Positions 12,395-28,698 of a stretch of 44,008 nucleotides of DNA are shown here, in pieces. The notes beneath the pieces were generated by a model. That model was given only the letters and a program-made list of their open reading frames with translations, was not told where the DNA came from and ran no database searches. The position numbers and the translations under genes were made by a program. This DNA comes from a virus (taxonomy: Duplodnaviria > Heunggongvirae > Uroviricota > Caudoviricetes): the IMG/VR virus record IMGVR_UViG_3300008262_000022; one strand, 5' to 3'. The stretch's first letter is position 1. Every line of letters starts with the position of its first letter.

Positions 12395-13414
12395 ATGAGT
12401 GCTTTCAAACAGCTTTACAAATCAGATATAACAGTAACTCCTTACACAGCTAATAAGTTATGGTCGTTTTCTTATACTAGTATCCCTAACGATGGTTATA
12501 TAACATATTACATAGGTACTAATACTCCTTTTTCAATTAGTGGTTCAACCACAACTAATGGAGAATACCAATCTTCTATATATGCTGTAGCTAACCAACT
12601 TTATTATCAATCATATACCAGTTCATTAAATACCCAATCGTTAGCAGTTTCTATATATTATGAATCAGCATCATCCCAAAGACCTACTTCATCTTATTAC
12701 AAATACCAAGAAGGTAATACCATCAAAAATTTTCCTTCAGGTGCAGGAGATAGGATAGGTTTATTAGGTGTAAGTAGTGATTTATACGGTAACAATATTT
12801 TACCTTATAGTATTAAAATATCATCTTCTTTAGTAACAATAATTGATGATGGAAATGGTAACTTATACGATGTAACCTATCTCCCTACATTATACGTAGA
12901 TAGTCTATATGTAAATCCATATTATGCTATATCTACAGGATATATATCATCTAGTTATCTTACATCATCATATTTAACTGAGAACGGAAGTGATTTTACT
13001 CCAATTCATATAGGTAATATATTTTATGGACAGGGAATGTTTGTCATAACTAATAATGATTACATTAACTTTTTAAGTTCTCCTATAACTTTAACTAAAG
13101 TTGAATTTCAAAATAACTACAATATTTATGAAACTGAAGTAAGATGTATAGTTAAAGAAAGTGAATTTAATGCTAGTTATAATCCATCTATACAGGAGGG
13201 AGTAATAACAAGCGCAAGTATATCTGGTTCTGTATTTTATTTTAATGATGGAACTTTAAAAGATTTTGCAACAGGCTCAGACTTTTCACCTTATGTTACT
13301 TCTATTGGTTTATATAATGATGAGGATGATTTGTTAGCTGTAGCTAAATTTGCTAAACCTTTACTTATATCTCCAAATACAGATATGACTTTTATAGTTA
13401 AATATGATATTTAA
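12395..13414 (+). CDS. Paralogue of the preceding tail/baseplate protein
   Basis: Shares 'GDDGNGNL'-like (DDGNGNLYD) and C-terminal 'YVTSIGLYNDEDDLLAVAKFAKPL' segments with 11397..12386 ('EFNY/A.YNPS'). Confidence 0.5.
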   Translation: MSAFKQLYKSDITVTPYTANKLWSFSYTSIPNDGYITYYIGTNTPFSISGSTTTNGEYQSSIYAVANQLYYQSYTSSLNTQSLAVSIYYESASSQRPTSSYYKYQEGNTIKNFPSGAGDRIGLLGVSSDLYGNNILPYSIKISSSLVTIIDDGNGNLYDVTYLPTLYVDSLYVNPYYAISTGYISSSYLTSSYLTENGSDFTPIHIGNIFYGQGMFVITNNDYINFLSSPITLTKVEFQNNYNIYETEVRCIVKESEFNASYNPSIQEGVITSASISGSVFYFNDGTLKDFATGSDFSPYVTSIGLYNDEDDLLAVAKFAKPLLISPNTDMTFIVKYDI

Positions 13415-23895: not shown

Positions 23896-24633
23896 ATGAG
23901 TAAGATCAAAAGACTCTTTTTTGATATTGAAACTAGTCCTAATATTGGATTATTTTGGACAGCTGGTTATAAACTAAGTATAGGTCACGACAATATTATA
24001 AAAGAACGAGCAATCATATGCATTTGTTATAAATGGGCAGATGAAAAAGAAGTTCATTCATTGACATGGGACGCTAAACAAAATGACAAAAATTTATTAG
24101 AAAAATTCATTAAAATAGCTAATGAAGCTGATGAATTAGTAGGACATAATGGAGACAAATATGACTTACCTTGGGTTAGAACTAGATGTTTATATCACGG
24201 TATTGATTTATTTCCTACTTATACCACTATAGATACTTTAAAGTATGCGCGTTCTAAATTCAAATTTAATAGCAATAAACTCGATTATATCGCGCAATTT
24301 TTAGGCTTAGGAGCCAAAATCAGCACAGGGTTTAACTTATGGAAAGACATTGTTTTAAACAAAGATAAAAAAGCAATGGATCAAATGGTTGAATATTGTA
24401 AAGGTGATGTAATTTTATTAGAAAAAGTATATAATAAACTAGCACCCCATTTTCCTGAAAAAACACACGTTAGTGAAGATAAAACAGATTGCCCTACATG
24501 CGGCTCAAGCAAATGGTCATTCTCTAAACGCAGAATGTCAGCATTAGGAACAGTTCGTGTACAAATGCAGTGTAAAAAATGTGGCCGTTATCATACAGTG
24601 TCTGAAAAAATATATGAATCTGTAACAGCATAA
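23896..24633 (+). CDS. RNase H-like (DEDD) 3'-5' exonuclease with C-terminal zinc ribbon
   Basis: 'FFDIETS', 'VGHNGDKYD', 'NKLDYIA.FLG', 'YCKGDV', 'CPTCG...CKKC'. Confidence 0.8.
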   Translation: MSKIKRLFFDIETSPNIGLFWTAGYKLSIGHDNIIKERAIICICYKWADEKEVHSLTWDAKQNDKNLLEKFIKIANEADELVGHNGDKYDLPWVRTRCLYHGIDLFPTYTTIDTLKYARSKFKFNSNKLDYIAQFLGLGAKISTGFNLWKDIVLNKDKKAMDQMVEYCKGDVILLEKVYNKLAPHFPEKTHVSEDKTDCPTCGSSKWSFSKRRMSALGTVRVQMQCKKCGRYHTVSEKIYESVTA

Positions 24634-24677: not shown

Positions 24678-25115
24678 ATGAACCGCACAACACTACGCAC
24701 ACTAATAAAAGAGGCTATTCGTAAAACTCTTAAAGAACAAGAAGATTTAACCCCTATAGACCCAGGACCTGGACAAGAGCCAGCAAATGTTCCTACTTCA
24801 GATGAAGCACCATCTGAAGCTGAAACTCCTGAAGCACCATCAGGAAATATCAGCAAAGAAGAAGCTAAACAGTTGGTTAAAGGTACTAAAGGTAAATTTT
24901 TTACTGTTACATTTATTAAAAAAGATGGAACAGAACGAGTAATGAATGCTCGTTTAGGTGTTAAAGCTTATCTTAAAGGCGGTGATTTACCATATAACCC
25001 AGATGAAAAAGGATTAATTCCTGTATATGATATGAAAAATGGTGGTTATAGAATGGTAAACGTTAATACCATTAAAAAATTAAAAATAGGTAATAACGAA
25101 TATAACGTACAATAA
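24678..25115 (+). CDS. Cargo-leader protein with a C-terminal SH3/WYL-like beta domain
   Basis: 'LRTLIKEAIRKTLKE' leader, Pro-rich linker, 'FFTVTFIKKDGTERVM...VYDM...YRMVN'; TATTTATT at 24634-24641. Confidence 0.55.
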   Translation: MNRTTLRTLIKEAIRKTLKEQEDLTPIDPGPGQEPANVPTSDEAPSEAETPEAPSGNISKEEAKQLVKGTKGKFFTVTFIKKDGTERVMNARLGVKAYLKGGDLPYNPDEKGLIPVYDMKNGGYRMVNVNTIKKLKIGNNEYNVQ

Positions 25116-25471
25116 TGGAGTTAGTAGGTATTTTAAAAGAAAATAAACAAATTTATTATTTAGAATTAATTCCTCTAGATAATAAAACTAAAGTTAAGGA
25201 AATAGAAAAACAAATATCTAAATTACAGGCTTTAGGAGCTAATATGAGTGCAATCGATATGAAAACTTTATATAAAAATATAAAGCGATTTTTTGTTGGG
25301 AAATATAAAGATGGTAGTGATATTCCTACACCATATACTGATAAAAGTGAATTATTTAACAACCAATATGATACTAAAGCTACAATATTTACTAAAGAAG
25401 AAGCAGAAAAACGCAAAGCCTTTATAGATAAGTATGTAAAAGATTGGATTGTAAATATAAAAACAGTATAA
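25115..25471 (+). CDS. Hypothetical protein with 'GILKE' leader
   Basis: 118-aa ORF, TAATG-coupled. Confidence 0.5.
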   Translation: MELVGILKENKQIYYLELIPLDNKTKVKEIEKQISKLQALGANMSAIDMKTLYKNIKRFFVGKYKDGSDIPTPYTDKSELFNNQYDTKATIFTKEEAEKRKAFIDKYVKDWIVNIKTV

Positions 25472-25477
25472 CATTTA

Positions 25478-25530
25478 GACAGATTCATAGCCTGTCGCTC
25501 GTAAGAGATAAAATAATATGGAAGCTGTGG
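25478..25530 (+). ncRNA. Candidate structured RNA (H-type pseudoknot with GNRA hairpin) overlapping a terminator
   Basis: P1 GACAG(25478-82)/CTGTC(25492-96); CTC-GTAA-GAG hairpin; the P1 loop can pair with TATGGA (25517-22) or GCTGTGG (25524-30). Confidence 0.5.
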
Positions 25531-25564
25531 CTCCGATCAAAAGATTGGGGCCACTCTTGTTTTG
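25527..25564 (+). terminator. Rho-independent terminator
   Basis: GTGGCTCCGATC-aaaa-GATTGGGGCCAC, a 12-bp stem with two G-U pairs, followed by TCTTGTTTTG. Confidence 0.7.
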
Positions 25565-25591
25565 AAAGTCAAAATAAAGATATTAAATTTA
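25561..25591 (+). promoter_or_regulatory. Bacteroidota sigma70-type promoter for the oxidoreductase N-half
   Basis: TTTG (25561-25564), 19-nt spacer, TAAATTTA (25584-25591). Confidence 0.55.
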
Positions 25592-25598
25592 TAAAATT

Positions 25599-26117
25599 AT
25601 GGATAAAAAAATAGTAATAGTAGGTAGTGGAGTAGCAGGTATTAGTGCTGCATTAAAATTAATAGATAATAACTACCCAGGAGAATTAATTACCATTATA
25701 GATAAAGGTAATGATCCTTATGTTCGTAAACCAGAAGAAGTAATGACAGGATTTGCAGGAGCTGGAGGATTCTCAGATGGTAAACTTACTTATCATACAT
25801 CAATTGGTGGTCAATTAAGTAAATATTGTGGTGAAGAAAAAGCTTATGATTTAATGGATCAATCTATTGAAATGTGGAAACGCTTCCATCCAGATCCATC
25901 TAAAATAATGTACTCAAATCCACAATCTGAACCGGATTTTATTAAACCTTATTTTGGTCTTCGTTTATTTCCTGTTTACCATATTGGTACAGATTATTTA
26001 CACGAAATAGGAAAACGTTGGTATGATTATTTAGTTGATAAAGGTGTTAAATTTGTGTGGGAGACTGAGGTAGAGGATATTGACTTTGAAACTGGGGAAA
26101 TAATATTAAAAGATTAA
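25599..26117 (+). CDS. FAD-dependent oxidoreductase (COG2509-like), N-terminal half of a split gene
   Basis: Rossmann 'IVIVGSGVAG', 'GFAGAGGFSDGKL', 'HIGTD'; ends after 'GVKFVWETEVEDID'. Confidence 0.8.
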   Translation: MDKKIVIVGSGVAGISAALKLIDNNYPGELITIIDKGNDPYVRKPEEVMTGFAGAGGFSDGKLTYHTSIGGQLSKYCGEEKAYDLMDQSIEMWKRFHPDPSKIMYSNPQSEPDFIKPYFGLRLFPVYHIGTDYLHEIGKRWYDYLVDKGVKFVWETEVEDIDFETGEIILKD

Positions 26118-26138
26118 TATTTATATTAAAACATAATT

Positions 26139-26369
26139 ATGAAAAAATCTGAATTACAACAAATCATTAAAGAAGAAATACAAAAATCCCCTCAATATGT
26201 AGCCGACAAACTGTGGGATAAATTTAATGGAAATTTTGAAAAAATAGATAGATATATTGACGGTAAATTGTTAAAAAATATAAATAGATCTAAAATTTCT
26301 GTTGATAAAGTTGATAACATGGATAAATTTTGGAAAGAAGTATATAGATTAATATCTAATAAACTTTAA
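26139..26369 (+). CDS. Small cargo-leader protein inserted in the oxidoreductase
   Basis: 'MKKSELQQIIKEEI' leader; TATTTATA at 26118-26125. Confidence 0.6.
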   Translation: MKKSELQQIIKEEIQKSPQYVADKLWDKFNGNFEKIDRYIDGKLLKNINRSKISVDKVDNMDKFWKEVYRLISNKL

Positions 26370-26393
26370 TTTTCTTAGATTTTTTCTTAGATT
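26370..26393 (+). repeat. Tandem 12-bp direct repeat TTTTCTTAGATT x2
   Basis: Exact copies at 26370-26381 and 26382-26393, just upstream of TATTTATA (26399-26406). Confidence 0.8.
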
Positions 26394-26410
26394 TGTAATA
26401 TTTATAATCG

Positions 26411-26554
26411 ATGGGACGTATCAAAAAATATCAAACAGAAGATGAACGTATTCTCAAACAACGAGAATATAGTAAGAAATATTACTGGTCTAATAAAGAA
26501 AAAATCGATGAAAAACTTAAACAAAAATACCACGAAAAGAAAACAAAACAATAA
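26411..26554 (+). CDS. Unannotated 47-aa basic helical ORF (MGRIKKYQTEDERILKQREYSKKYYWSNKEKIDEKLKQKYHEKKTKQ)
   Basis: First ATG after the late-type motif; open to TAA at 26552-26554; overlaps the endonuclease 5' end in another frame. Confidence 0.6.
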   Translation: MGRIKKYQTEDERILKQREYSKKYYWSNKEKIDEKLKQKYHEKKTKQ

Positions 26555-27245
26555 TTTTATAGTTTATATTCATATACGACCTGATATAAATGAACCATTT
26601 TATGTTGGAAAAGGAGTACCTGGAAGAGAAATTAGAACATGTGGTAGAAATCAATACTGGCATAACATTATAAATAAAAATAATGGTGTGTTTGAACCTA
26701 AAATACTATTTGAAGGATTAACTGAAGAGGAAGCATTGTTAAAAGAAAGAGAAATAGAATTGGATTTAAAAAATAAAGGTTATATATTAGCTAATATAGC
26801 TGAATGTGGTGTCAAAGCTGGTACTACTGGAATGAAGCATTCTAAAGAATCTAAACATAAAATGAGTGAATATTGGAAACAATATTACAATGAAAATCCT
26901 AGCCCTAAAAAAGGTATTAAGATGAGTAAGGAAAGTAGTGAGAAGAAAAGTAAGTCTATGATGGGTAAAAAAGTTAAATTAGGTGTAAAAGAATCTGATG
27001 AAACTAGAAAAAAGAAAAGTATTGGAATAAAAAACAGAGATCCTAAATGGATAGAAAAAAGAAATAAATCTATGGGTGATAAACTTAAAGATTTAAACAT
27101 TTATACTTTTCAACATTTAGAAACTAAAGAAATTTTTAAAGGTACTAGAAAAGAATTTGAAAATAAATTTAATTTAAATGGTGGAAGACTTAGTCAATTA
27201 ATTAATAATAAAGTTTTAAAATATAAAAATTGGATAAAAATATGA
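26508..27245 (+). mobile_element. GIY-YIG homing endonuclease with NUMOD3-like repeats
   Basis: 'VYIHIRP...FYVGKG', 'LTEEEALLKEREI', repeats 'GMKHSKESKHKMS', 'GIKMSKESSEKKS', 'GVKESDETRKKKS'. Start uncertain (26442 or 26508). Confidence 0.8.
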
Positions 27246-28039
27246 GAAAAATAAAATTTGACACTTGTATAGTAGGTACAGGTAAAGCTGGAATAGACTT
27301 TTCAGCTAAGCTAGCTCAGAAATATAATTTACCTACTGAGCAAAAGTCGGTCCAAATAGGCTGTAGGTTCGAGGCACCACAAAAATACTTCCAGAAATTA
27401 ATTGATGTAAGTTACGATTTTAAACTATATCAAAAGTTTGACAATGTGTCGTTACGTTCATTCTGTACTAACAATAACGCGGCTTATGTAGCAGTAGAAG
27501 AAACGTATGGTGATATAACATATAATGGCCATGCTAAAAAAGGTGAAGAATTTCGCAATGACATGACTAACTTTGGCATCTTAATGGAAATTAAAGGTAT
27601 TGAAAATCCATTTGAATGGTCACGAGATGTTGTTAAAAAATGTAATATAGTAGATGGTCAAACAAAGGAAAAAATAGGAGGAATATATTATTCACCAAAT
27701 CAAACAAGACAACCATCTAATACCTCTGAGGGTGAAAGAGTTAAATCTCATCAAGCTCATGAACATGTATTACCTATAATAAGAGAAGCATTCGGTGGGT
27801 ATTTTGAATACATTGAAAACTTCATTGACCAAATGAATAAAGTATTCGAATTTGGTGATGATTGGGGTATGTATATTCCTGAAGTAAAATATCTATCTCC
27901 TGAACCATTAGTAAATTATAAAAACTTAGCATTAGTTGATTATCCTAACGTACACTTCGTAGGTGATGCTTTAAGTGCTCGTGGAATTACAGTATCAGGA
28001 GCGCATGGGATATATGTTGCTGAATATTTATTAGCATGA
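27242..28039 (+). CDS. FAD-dependent oxidoreductase (COG2509-like), C-terminal half of a split gene
   Basis: Begins 'MRKIKFDTCIVGTGKAG' with ATGA overlap on the endonuclease stop; 'QIGCRFE', 'RSFCTN', 'HFVGDALSARGI..SGAHG'. Confidence 0.8.
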   Translation: MRKIKFDTCIVGTGKAGIDFSAKLAQKYNLPTEQKSVQIGCRFEAPQKYFQKLIDVSYDFKLYQKFDNVSLRSFCTNNNAAYVAVEETYGDITYNGHAKKGEEFRNDMTNFGILMEIKGIENPFEWSRDVVKKCNIVDGQTKEKIGGIYYSPNQTRQPSNTSEGERVKSHQAHEHVLPIIREAFGGYFEYIENFIDQMNKVFEFGDDWGMYIPEVKYLSPEPLVNYKNLALVDYPNVHFVGDALSARGITVSGAHGIYVAEYLLA

Positions 28040-28698
28040 AACCTGTTGCTTTAACGCTATCATCTAGGATACCATTCGGTAAATATGAAAACCGATTGGT
28101 ATCCGATATATTAATATCTGACCCAAGATATCTAAAGTGGTTGTGGGTTGAGAAAAAAGCGATTGCTCCTGATACAGCATTGGAACAACGACTAAGATTA
28201 ACCCCGTCAGATTTTGCGGTAGCAGGAATGAAATTACCTAAAGCTAACTTAAAAGAAAATATGAAAGTAAAACAATTACGCGAAGCTATTCGCCAAATTA
28301 TTCGTAAAGAATTAAACGAAAACCAGCCAGCTAAATCACCAACACCTTCTCGCCCAGAACCAACTACTCTTCCTAAACCAGGAGTAGATAAACCTGATGA
28401 AAAACGCAGAAGAATAGGAAATCCAGATGTAAAACCTGCTCCTAAAAATTTAAAGGAAGAGGAAATGATAGATAAAATTACAGCTCGTTTTATGAAGGCT
28501 AAACAAATAAACGAATTGCTTACTTTAGACGATTTAGAAAAATTATCTCCGAAAAATAAGCCCGCATATACTGATGAACAAATTAGTAAGATGACATTAA
28601 AACAAGCTGAATTAGCTTTAAAAAAAGGAATATGGGATGTACCTCAAAATAAAAAAATTAGGGCTAAATTGCTATCTAGAATTAAATCACTAAAATAA
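28036..28698 (+). CDS. Modular protein: 'IPFGKY...DPRYLKWL' domain fused to a cargo-type Pro-rich module
   Basis: N-terminal 'PFGKY' nucleic-acid-binding-like domain; internal 'LKE-NMKVKQLREAIRQIIRKELNE'. Confidence 0.55.
   Translation: MKPVALTLSSRIPFGKYENRLVSDILISDPRYLKWLWVEKKAIAPDTALEQRLRLTPSDFAVAGMKLPKANLKENMKVKQLREAIRQIIRKELNENQPAKSPTPSRPEPTTLPKPGVDKPDEKRRRIGNPDVKPAPKNLKEEEMIDKITARFMKAKQINELLTLDDLEKLSPKNKPAYTDEQISKMTLKQAELALKKGIWDVPQNKKIRAKLLSRIKSLK

Follow-up and report, generated by a model that had tools for sequence, protein, structure and literature searches.

A FAD-dependent dehydrogenase gene in two open reading frames, probably fractured by a mobile GIY-YIG endonuclease cassette in an uncultured T4-type phage

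To our knowledge, only a few cases of gene fracture by a free-standing homing endonuclease have been described, each from a single phage. In Aeromonas phage Aeh1 the nrdA gene is split by the free-standing endonuclease gene mobE, a case that Friedrich is said also to have described in 2007. The tails that the two NrdA polypeptides derive from this insertion are essential for their assembly (Crona et al. 2011, PMC3045599). In T4 topoisomerase the genes 39 and 60 are associated with mobA, and genes 43A and 43B of Aeromonas phages 25 and 44RR with either a seg-like gene or an untranslated spacer (PMC2988022). Split-intein fractured genes comprise an N-part, a free-standing endonuclease gene and a C-part, and come mainly from environmental phage DNA (Dassa et al. 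2009, PMC2677866); T4-type phages carry promoter-stem-loop (PeSL) cassettes in their hyperplastic regions (Arbiol et al. 2010, PMC2839356; Comeau et al. 2014, PMC4122927). Our study reports on a split gene for a flavin adenine dinucleotide (FAD)-dependent dehydrogenase in a Caudoviricetes record of IMG/VR (IMGVR_UViG_3300008262_000022), the whole 44,008 nucleotides (nt) of which are referred to here as the window. The gene lies on the + strand at 25599-28039 and is divided into two open reading frames (ORFs) by an insert that carries a GIY-YIG homing endonuclease gene. We consider it likely that a mobile GIY-YIG cassette fractured this gene, and that the two halves are translated separately and reassemble non-covalently, with no splicing.

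Judged by alignment, the ORFs at 25599-26117 and 27242-28039 are collinear halves of one COG2509-like FAD-dependent enzyme. Related loci were collected from IMG/VR (L001-L080, 80 of 472 matches), and the 72 of these that hold both enzyme parts were used to count split and intact alleles. The enzyme is encoded by one uninterrupted ORF in 55 loci and is split in 17, which bears out the contiguity at the break that the original prediction had proposed to check against intact homologues. In the intact alleles the two parts are separated by a variable, unconserved loop of 6-26 residues, and in distant gut-phage records they share one frame about 50 nt apart; given a single frame in so many relatives, the contiguity of the halves is no chance resemblance. 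Their summed length of 437 residues (172 + 265) compares with 428-461 in intact proteins, and thus nothing is missing or added at the break. An AlphaFold2 (AF2) model of the intact homologue P0002 puts the break site in a beta-hairpin, at the loop that links strands E169-174 and E181-184; the best PDB match of this model is 3NLC (VP0956; E 1e-15, TMq, a template modelling score, 0.62).

The N-half is collinear with residues 1 to about 172 of the intact homologues and stops in the first of the two hairpin strands separated by the break. It matches Pfam Pyr_redox_2 (1.3e-7; also DAO) and positions 2-158 of the phrog_12409 'dehydrogenase' profile, contains the GxGxxG Rossmann beta-alpha-beta unit, and retains the invariant residues G9, G11, G14 and D35. 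The C-half, for which Pfam and NCBIfam gave no family when it was searched alone, also matches phrog_12409, such that the two halves map to opposite ends of that family, and it is 85% identical to residues ~180-447 of the intact proteins P0001-P0003. It begins with the second hairpin strand and the glycine-rich strand CIVGTGKAG, and ends with the GD motif, in which the invariant G241 and D242 are retained, and the C-terminal helix of the FAD domain. The GxGxxG and GD motifs and the two-domain flavoprotein fold that mark COG2509-like FAD-dependent dehydrogenases are all present. More than 7800 proteins were found as close relatives of the enzyme; database sources label relatives 'uncharacterized FAD-dependent dehydrogenase', and a literature search for COG2509 or FAD-dependent dehydrogenases in phages returned nothing relevant.

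The coordinates, lengths, TAA junction and ATG/TGA overlap given in the original prediction are every one present in the sequence. The N-half (172 residues) starts with the ATG at 25599 and ends in EVEDIDFETGEIILKD (…FETGEIILKD), which is followed by the TAA at 26115-26117 and directly after it by TATTTATA. A copy of a promoter-like motif, AATATTTAT, overlaps this stop codon (26116-26124, + strand), and a second copy (26397-26405, +) lies ahead of the gene pair formed by the basic, 47-residue ORF47 (26411-26554, +) and the endonuclease gene (26508-27245, +). Between the two copies is a small cargo ORF, ORF76 (26139-26369, +). The endonuclease frame is open from 26442, and we have revised its start to a probable ATG at 26508 (MKNLNKNT...; 245 residues), because in its homologues only a few residues precede the GIY motif and because, upstream of 26508, substitutions leave the protein of the ORF47 frame unchanged but not that of the endonuclease frame. 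Its TGA (27243-27245) overlaps the ATG of the 265-residue C-half (27242-28039, +) to read ATGA, and the C-half then begins with MRKIKFDTCIVGTGKAG (MRKIKFD). As had been claimed, the three-ORF insert of about 1.12 kb is nearly all coding: of its 1124 nt (26118-27241), 1062 (94.5%) fall within ORFs. Upstream of the N-half, a terminator-like hairpin with a 12-bp stem followed by a T-run (25527-25564, +) marks the beginning of a new transcription unit.

We propose that the fracture took place in the loop of a surface beta-hairpin, with the free-standing GIY-YIG gene as the engine of the mobile cassette. The insert would have provided both new ends: the stop of the N-half, through the TAA within AATATTTAT, and the initiation region of the C-half, through the last endonuclease codons and the ATGA overlap. 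The two polypeptides would be made separately, through neither RNA nor protein splicing, and are modelled to reassemble non-covalently to one flavoenzyme, whose FAD site would draw on the GxGxxG unit from the N-half and, from the C-half, on the GD motif and the C-terminal helix. We infer the subunit assembly, the activity and target of the endonuclease and the logic of transcription and translation.

The analogy with nrdA and mobE drawn in the original prediction appears apt (PMC3045599). In both cases an enzyme gene of a T4-type phage is divided by a free-standing endonuclease gene into two separately translated polypeptides that have to reassemble, with insertion-derived residues at the ends created by the break, and no splicing is involved; as in that system, the collinear parts are contiguous in relatives and the endonuclease ORF lies outside any intron or intein. 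The endonuclease of Aeh1 is, however, of the HNH type (mobE) and ours of the GIY-YIG type, the target enzymes differ, and the nrdA break lies in a functionally critical region whereas the present one lies in a hypervariable hairpin loop. Aeh1 is also a single phage with biochemical proof, while the evidence here comes from sequences and models and from a large natural population of intact, split and decayed alleles with changing cargo. The locus likewise resembles 39/60-mobA and 43A/43B in being a split T4-related gene with an endonuclease or other sequence between the parts and a gap filled differently in relatives, and in sharing with them an uncertainty as to whether the endonuclease caused the split. 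Those cases, in contrast, involve replication enzymes and two or three states, whereas the dehydrogenase gap has been occupied by unrelated ORFs, truncated copies and endonucleases of at least three lineages. Gene fracture of this kind is already known; what is seen here in addition is the coexistence in nature of intact, freshly invaded and decayed versions.

Both halves are open and full length in all 16 split alleles analysed, at 70-80% identity. The ratio of non-synonymous to synonymous substitution rates (dN/dS) among split alleles is 0.13 for the N-half and 0.19 for the C-half, against 0.17 and 0.17 in intact alleles; with dS at about 1, and hence saturated, these ratios are approximate, and they are not strictly post-split, as divergence among split alleles may partly predate gain of the insert. 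The relaxed selection on either half that the original prediction named as grounds for abandoning its reading is not seen; instead, these comparisons indicate that both halves are under purifying selection at the rate found in intact alleles, which is consistent with their assembly into an enzyme that would be active. A prediction of the complex, also proposed at the outset, associates the halves with a score of 0.87 against 0.00 for the best control; 58 of 80 solved complexes and 2 of 110 mismatched pairs attained the mark applied to such models. Contacts agreed to at least 95% across three runs, and the predicted local distance difference test (pLDDT) of the partner was at least 86. In the model, strand 3-9 and helix 13-21 of the N-half pack against residues 9-10 and 253-260 of the C-half, the interface reconstitutes the FAD-binding domain, and the two hairpin strands are paired. 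The halves are thereby predicted to reassemble into one enzyme.

In the endonuclease a catalytic domain is followed by NUMOD3-like repeats and, at the C-terminal end, by a DNA-binding domain. Its family in PHROG is phrog_314 'homing endonuclease' (E 6e-14), an exhaustive search recovered 5740 relatives, and a profile built from 31 of these relatives matches the GIY-YIG protein 9u75 of the PDB over the GIY…YIG…R segment (E 7e-4). The residues of the GIY-YIG motif set (GIY, YIG, catalytic Arg, Glu and Asn) are in place in the window protein: Y20 (VYI), Y32-V-G34 (FYVGKG), R40, R47 and E80 are invariant in the 31 homologues, and N96 is nearly so (90% or more). Its AF2 model (pLDDT 84) returned GIY-YIG domains as all of the top 16 PDB matches in Foldseek, including PD-T4-3, the UvrC N-domain and I-TevI (1MK0/1LN0; target-normalised score, TMt, 0.62-0.68), with E-values that are weak (0.014-0.75) since only about 90 of the 245 residues align. 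Direct searches with the window protein were less telling: Pfam at E<=0.01 gave no family and no GIY-YIG model, NUMOD3 appeared only at E 0.19-3.8, and NCBIfam gave nothing, while among the 31 homologues NUMOD3 is found in 21 and LEM-3 GIY-YIG in 3. A phmmer search against PDB sequences returned only a chance hit and no sequence-level match to I-TevI; it took the family profile to reveal the likeness. Across the full-length copies in the window, L021 and L027, dN/dS is 0.2-0.5 (0.16-0.31 in the catalytic domain), and the endonuclease gene is on this comparison probably active.

In its GIY-YIG domain, NUMOD3-like linker repeats, C-terminal DNA-binding domain and a start overlapped by upstream sequence, the protein resembles I-TevI and the Seg endonucleases of T4. 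It differs from I-TevI in that the match is by family profile and fold, with no match at the level of sequence, and in that its gene lies outside an intron. The start of I-TevI is occluded in early transcripts, and a hairpin predicted at the present locus recalls this arrangement, although regulation of this kind would here be conjectural. The hairpin has one arm at 26378-26405, which spans the second AATATTTAT motif, and the other at 26479-26508, just before the endonuclease ATG; the RNA of 26360-26520 folds unusually well (-33.2 kcal/mol, z = -4.0). On this model, transcripts that read through from upstream would occlude the endonuclease start, and those begun at the proximal motif would not.

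Around the start, a 5' module of about 160 nt (26373-26533), which spans the AATATTTAT motif, the greater part of ORF47 and the first eight endonuclease codons, is 91-98% identical before three different GIY-YIG bodies (further copies at L018:8588-8758, L026:94-295 and L021:1597-1796). The copy in L018 stands before terL and not in the FAD gene, and its GIY-YIG body, like that of L026, is unrelated. ORF47 (phrog_17714, E 1e-4) is 100% identical as a protein in L018, L020, L021 and L027. Within the module, to about position 26533, synonymous and non-synonymous changes in the ORF47 frame number 2/0 in L021, 1/0 in L020 and 3/0 in L027; in L026 (5/3) and L018 (5/10) non-synonymous changes do occur, at the diverging 3' end. 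This conservation suggests a shared regulatory and recombination module of this endonuclease group. In the endonuclease at L020:1-696, residues 1-153 are of the window type (84%) and the C-terminus is of the L026 type (…GYKWKYKNN; L026:173-838), which suggests an exchange of DNA-binding domains between endonuclease lineages at the site.

The original prediction presented the split as a new split-enzyme case; it is not a singular one, for the split allele is common in metagenomes. Of the 120 nearest protein clusters, 77 contain the C-half only and 42 are intact; 73 of the 77 begin at the same M[RK]KIK[FY]D, and the split form is therefore an established allele. The sequence after the break also separates the two forms: C-I-[VI]-G-T-G-K-A-G is found in 65 of the 77 C-half-only clusters and LIFAVGKSG in 41 of the 42 intact ones. 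In a sliding-window comparison, nucleotide identity over codons +16 to +45 is 0.89/0.75 between split alleles and 0.81/0.86 between intact alleles, against 0.61/0.65 between split and intact. Past about 45 codons, split alleles are as close to intact alleles as to each other, and there the best matches of the window are themselves intact (L001, 89% and 85%; L075, 90%, N-half). With alleles as mosaic as this, a single gene tree would mislead. These comparisons indicate that some 45 split-specific codons move as a block together with the insert, in alleles that are mosaic elsewhere. Short co-converted flanks, carried along as the insert passes from allele to allele, would produce this pattern, and the presence/absence polymorphism together with the split-specific flank is consistent with mobility of the endonuclease cassette. 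We propose that the cassette spreads among alleles by endonuclease-triggered gene conversion that would include these roughly 45 codons of flank and so convert the intact LIFAVGKSG-coding stretch to CIVGTGKAG, the former being the probable endonuclease target and the latter the probable immune variant.

The contents of the gap have turned over extensively. A full endonuclease gene is found only in the window, L021 and L027, with a partial gene in L020; in L013 and L014 all that is left of the gene is its C-terminal 137 codons (97% identity). In L026 the site is occupied by a different GIY-YIG body, and alleles of groups B and C carry a decayed GIY-YIG gene of a third kind (FIYYLEKDN…FYIGKT), which overlaps with an extended tail of the N-half, bringing the lineages at the site to at least three; other alleles have unrelated small ORFs between the halves. 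In five endonuclease-free alleles of group A (L007, L008, L011, L016 and L017) the last 30-45 nt of an endonuclease gene still directly precede the C-half ATG, where they are absent from two others (L006 and L010), and endonuclease remnants also lie within the inserts of groups B and C. Most, though not all, known split alleles therefore trace to endonuclease-bearing ones, and the position of the 30-45-nt remnant suggests that it serves as the C-half initiation region. Once the gene was split, the gap would have acted as an ordinary hyperplastic intergenic slot, in which endonucleases are exchanged, truncated or lost and which small ORFs enter behind a common promoter-and-leader cassette.

At its 5' edge the insert has a cassette of some 62 nt, composed of AATATTTAT over the N-half stop, an ATG and a leader of the MKKSELQQIIKEE type, and blastn found it elsewhere in related genomes (L016, L018, L043, L048, L057 and others). 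ORF76 has homologues only for its N-terminal leader and no tblastn match in the 80 loci; other split alleles have different ORFs at its position behind the same leader. The arrangement resembles PeSLs, in that short conserved regulatory cassettes 5' of small variable ORFs provide recombination points for modular shuffling, but PeSLs are intergenic in hyperplastic regions, whereas the present slot lies inside what was a single enzyme gene, and the cassette, AATATTTAT with a coding leader, is a different motif.

The arrangement might also be produced by splicing. A group I or group II intron carrying the endonuclease ORF, and spliced to give a full-length enzyme, would be in keeping with the frequent location of phage GIY-YIG endonucleases, such as I-TevI, in introns and with the unusually well folded region 26360-26520 (z = -4.0). 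We nonetheless regard it as highly improbable. Rfam searches of 25400-28200 gave no match to Intron_gpI or group II introns even at E<=10, and those of 13 other split loci gave no intron match at the gathering score. The insert is 94.5% ORF, and no 3' ribozyme segment is possible, because the endonuclease stop overlaps the C-half start. Across the split loci the inserts, of 369-1513 nt, differ in content, carry unrelated ORFs and have no common non-coding core; the 5' edge is an ordinary promoter-and-ATG cassette reused before other genes; and the conserved in-frame stop and ATG would be superfluous in an intron. The earlier claim that the insert is not an intron thus appears sound, given the Rfam result, halves with their own stop and start, and insert content that varies by locus. 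The succession of N-part, free-standing endonuclease gene and C-part also matches split-intein fractured genes of the type described by Dassa et al. 2009 (PMC2677866), in which the halves would be ligated by protein trans-splicing, but we give this next to no credence. The N-half ends and the C-half starts within the homologous loop, and since the halves sum to the intact length there is no room for intein parts of ~100 and ~35 residues; neither half matches Pfam intein or Hint families, and the C-half starts with MRKIKFD and not with an intein C-segment followed by C, S or T. Unlike the products of split-intein genes, the two parts contain no intein halves and cannot be ligated, and must therefore act as a non-covalent pair.

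If splicing is set aside, the endonuclease may have caused the split or may be a later occupant of the gap. On the latter account the gene was split by some other event, for instance a promoter/ORF cassette or an untranslated spacer, and GIY-YIG genes lodged there afterwards; this would explain why three GIY-YIG lineages and many endonuclease-free cargos share one gap, why a generic promoter-and-leader cassette, widespread in these genomes, forms the 5' edge of the insert, and why the site is a variable loop and not a conserved motif, and the same ambiguity has been raised for gene 43 in the Aeromonas phages 25 and 44RR (PMC2988022). The footprints favour the endonuclease as cause: its 3' remnants persist in the five group A alleles named above, though not in L006 and L010, the C-half start codon is created by the end of the endonuclease gene, and a split-specific flank replaces a conserved stretch, as target immunity would predict. 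Insertion of a later lodger is on balance unlikely. Lower still do we rate decay to a pseudogene, in which a recent insertion alone would explain the open halves, and no working enzyme would be made. The enzyme is perhaps dispensable, with a role that is unassigned and a gene that is absent from the nearest cultured phages (immuto), but the full-length halves of 16 of 16 split alleles at 70-80% identity, dN/dS values of 0.13-0.19 that equal those of intact alleles, invariant FAD-motif residues, the retention of both halves even where the endonuclease has long decayed, and the prevalence of the split form (77 of 120 nearest clusters) are difficult to reconcile with decay. Several points nevertheless weigh against fracture by a mobile GIY-YIG cassette with reassembly of the halves. 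A break in a variable loop and not in a conserved motif is atypical for homing sites, and the haplotype block could reflect old linkage instead of active co-conversion. The exclusion of splicing is argued from sequence, the window endonuclease has no direct Pfam match, the dN/dS ratios carry the limits given above, and the result of the complex model may come from likeness to the solved single-chain flavoproteins of this fold, which the model may have reproduced, and not from real binding.

A further reading accepts the split and asks what maintains it. The interior of the enzyme gene would be a stable cargo slot, the split ends would be adaptive, and selection beyond selfish drive would keep the split frequent; we put this forward tentatively, as possible but rather doubtful. 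In such a slot, cassettes would shuffle small ORFs and at least three GIY-YIG lineages would swap bodies via the shared 5' module of promoter motif, ORF47 and start codon. Head targeting is a possible role of the small ORF products, whose leaders end in I/L-x-E like T4 prohead-protease sites, and the ends …GEIILKD and MRKIKFD…CIVGTGKAG would form a two-strand zipper together with a recoded, cleavage-immune target.

Whatever maintains the split, one site offers a natural series of dozens of intact alleles, apparently active endonucleases, truncated or replaced ones, and footprints of 30-45 nt, with both enzyme halves conserved throughout. The series permits tests of how proteins tolerate being cut, with regard to loop position and terminal strands, of how far co-conversion reaches, and of what becomes of the gap after the invader decays; the practical limit is that the phages are uncultured.

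The original prediction made the C-half dependent on the promoter and translation of the invader. Dependence on translation of the endonuclease is not obligatory, as endonuclease-free alleles keep an intact C-half behind the 30-45-nt remnant. The hairpin at 25527-25564 is the sole terminator-like site on the + strand of 25300-28300, with none inside the insert or anywhere between 25565 and 28039, and read-through from upstream of the N-half is therefore an equally possible source of the C-half. Its transcription could thus start at a promoter upstream of the N-half, at the motifs at 26116 and 26397, or both. The window has 13 copies of AATATTTAT, all on the + strand, against 6.8 expected. By ORF coordinates, 10 of the 13 stand directly before gene starts, in the few bases after the preceding stop (1488, 10698, 18483, 18741, 22453, 24632, 26116, 26397, 30812 and 38437); the others are at 13121, 21070 and 28023. 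The motif resembles a phage promoter motif and contains the T4 late-promoter core in reverse complement. A sigma-70 promoter scan found 17 sites, against 18 expected from shuffles, and is uninformative on promoter classes; the different classes that had been suggested for the two halves come from inspection of motifs.

Many small variable ORFs of the window and its relatives start, by inspection, with a leader of the form MKKSELQQIIKEE… or MIKL(x)(N/D)(I/L)L(N/S)E…. In the window these ORFs begin at 26139, 18496, 18754, 22476 and 24678 (+ strand), and the cargo ORFs of L006, L007, L008, L016, L017 and L021, which replace one another between the enzyme halves, bear such leaders as well. Both leader types end in I/L-x-E, which recalls capsid-targeting leaders and the sites of the T4 prohead protease. 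With a loose regular expression, the N-terminal leader was caught in only 2 of 55 window ORFs, and the idea of a leader is drawn from inspection.

The source phage is a far-T4-like myophage whose nearest cultured relatives are Flavobacterium phages. The window has a guanine-plus-cytosine content of about 30%, carries all its genes on the + strand, and includes T4-type portal, terminase and Gp23 capsid genes; its major capsid protein shows 61% identity to the counterpart in Flavobacterium phage vB_FspM_immuto, the nearest sequenced relative. A megablast search with 12 kb around the locus found no match among GenBank phages, and the window is therefore without a close sequenced relative. No match to the FAD gene was found in the immuto phages. 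Shine-Dalgarno sequences are missing at the gene starts of the window, which fits a Bacteroidota host. A synteny check across the 80 related loci showed that the neighbours of the FAD gene vary, and gene context is therefore unusable as support for orthology: the upstream window ORF at 25115-25471 was matched in none of the 80 loci and the downstream ORF at 28036-28698 in only 8. The enzyme gene is a conserved anchor within a plastic region of these phages. Further upstream, 23896-24633 encodes a stand-alone 3'-5' exonuclease-like protein of 245 residues that matches the PHROG 'DNA polymerase exonuclease subunit' (8e-61) and has a cysteine-rich, zinc-ribbon-like C-terminal tail; the polymerase of the source phage may likewise consist of separate subunits.

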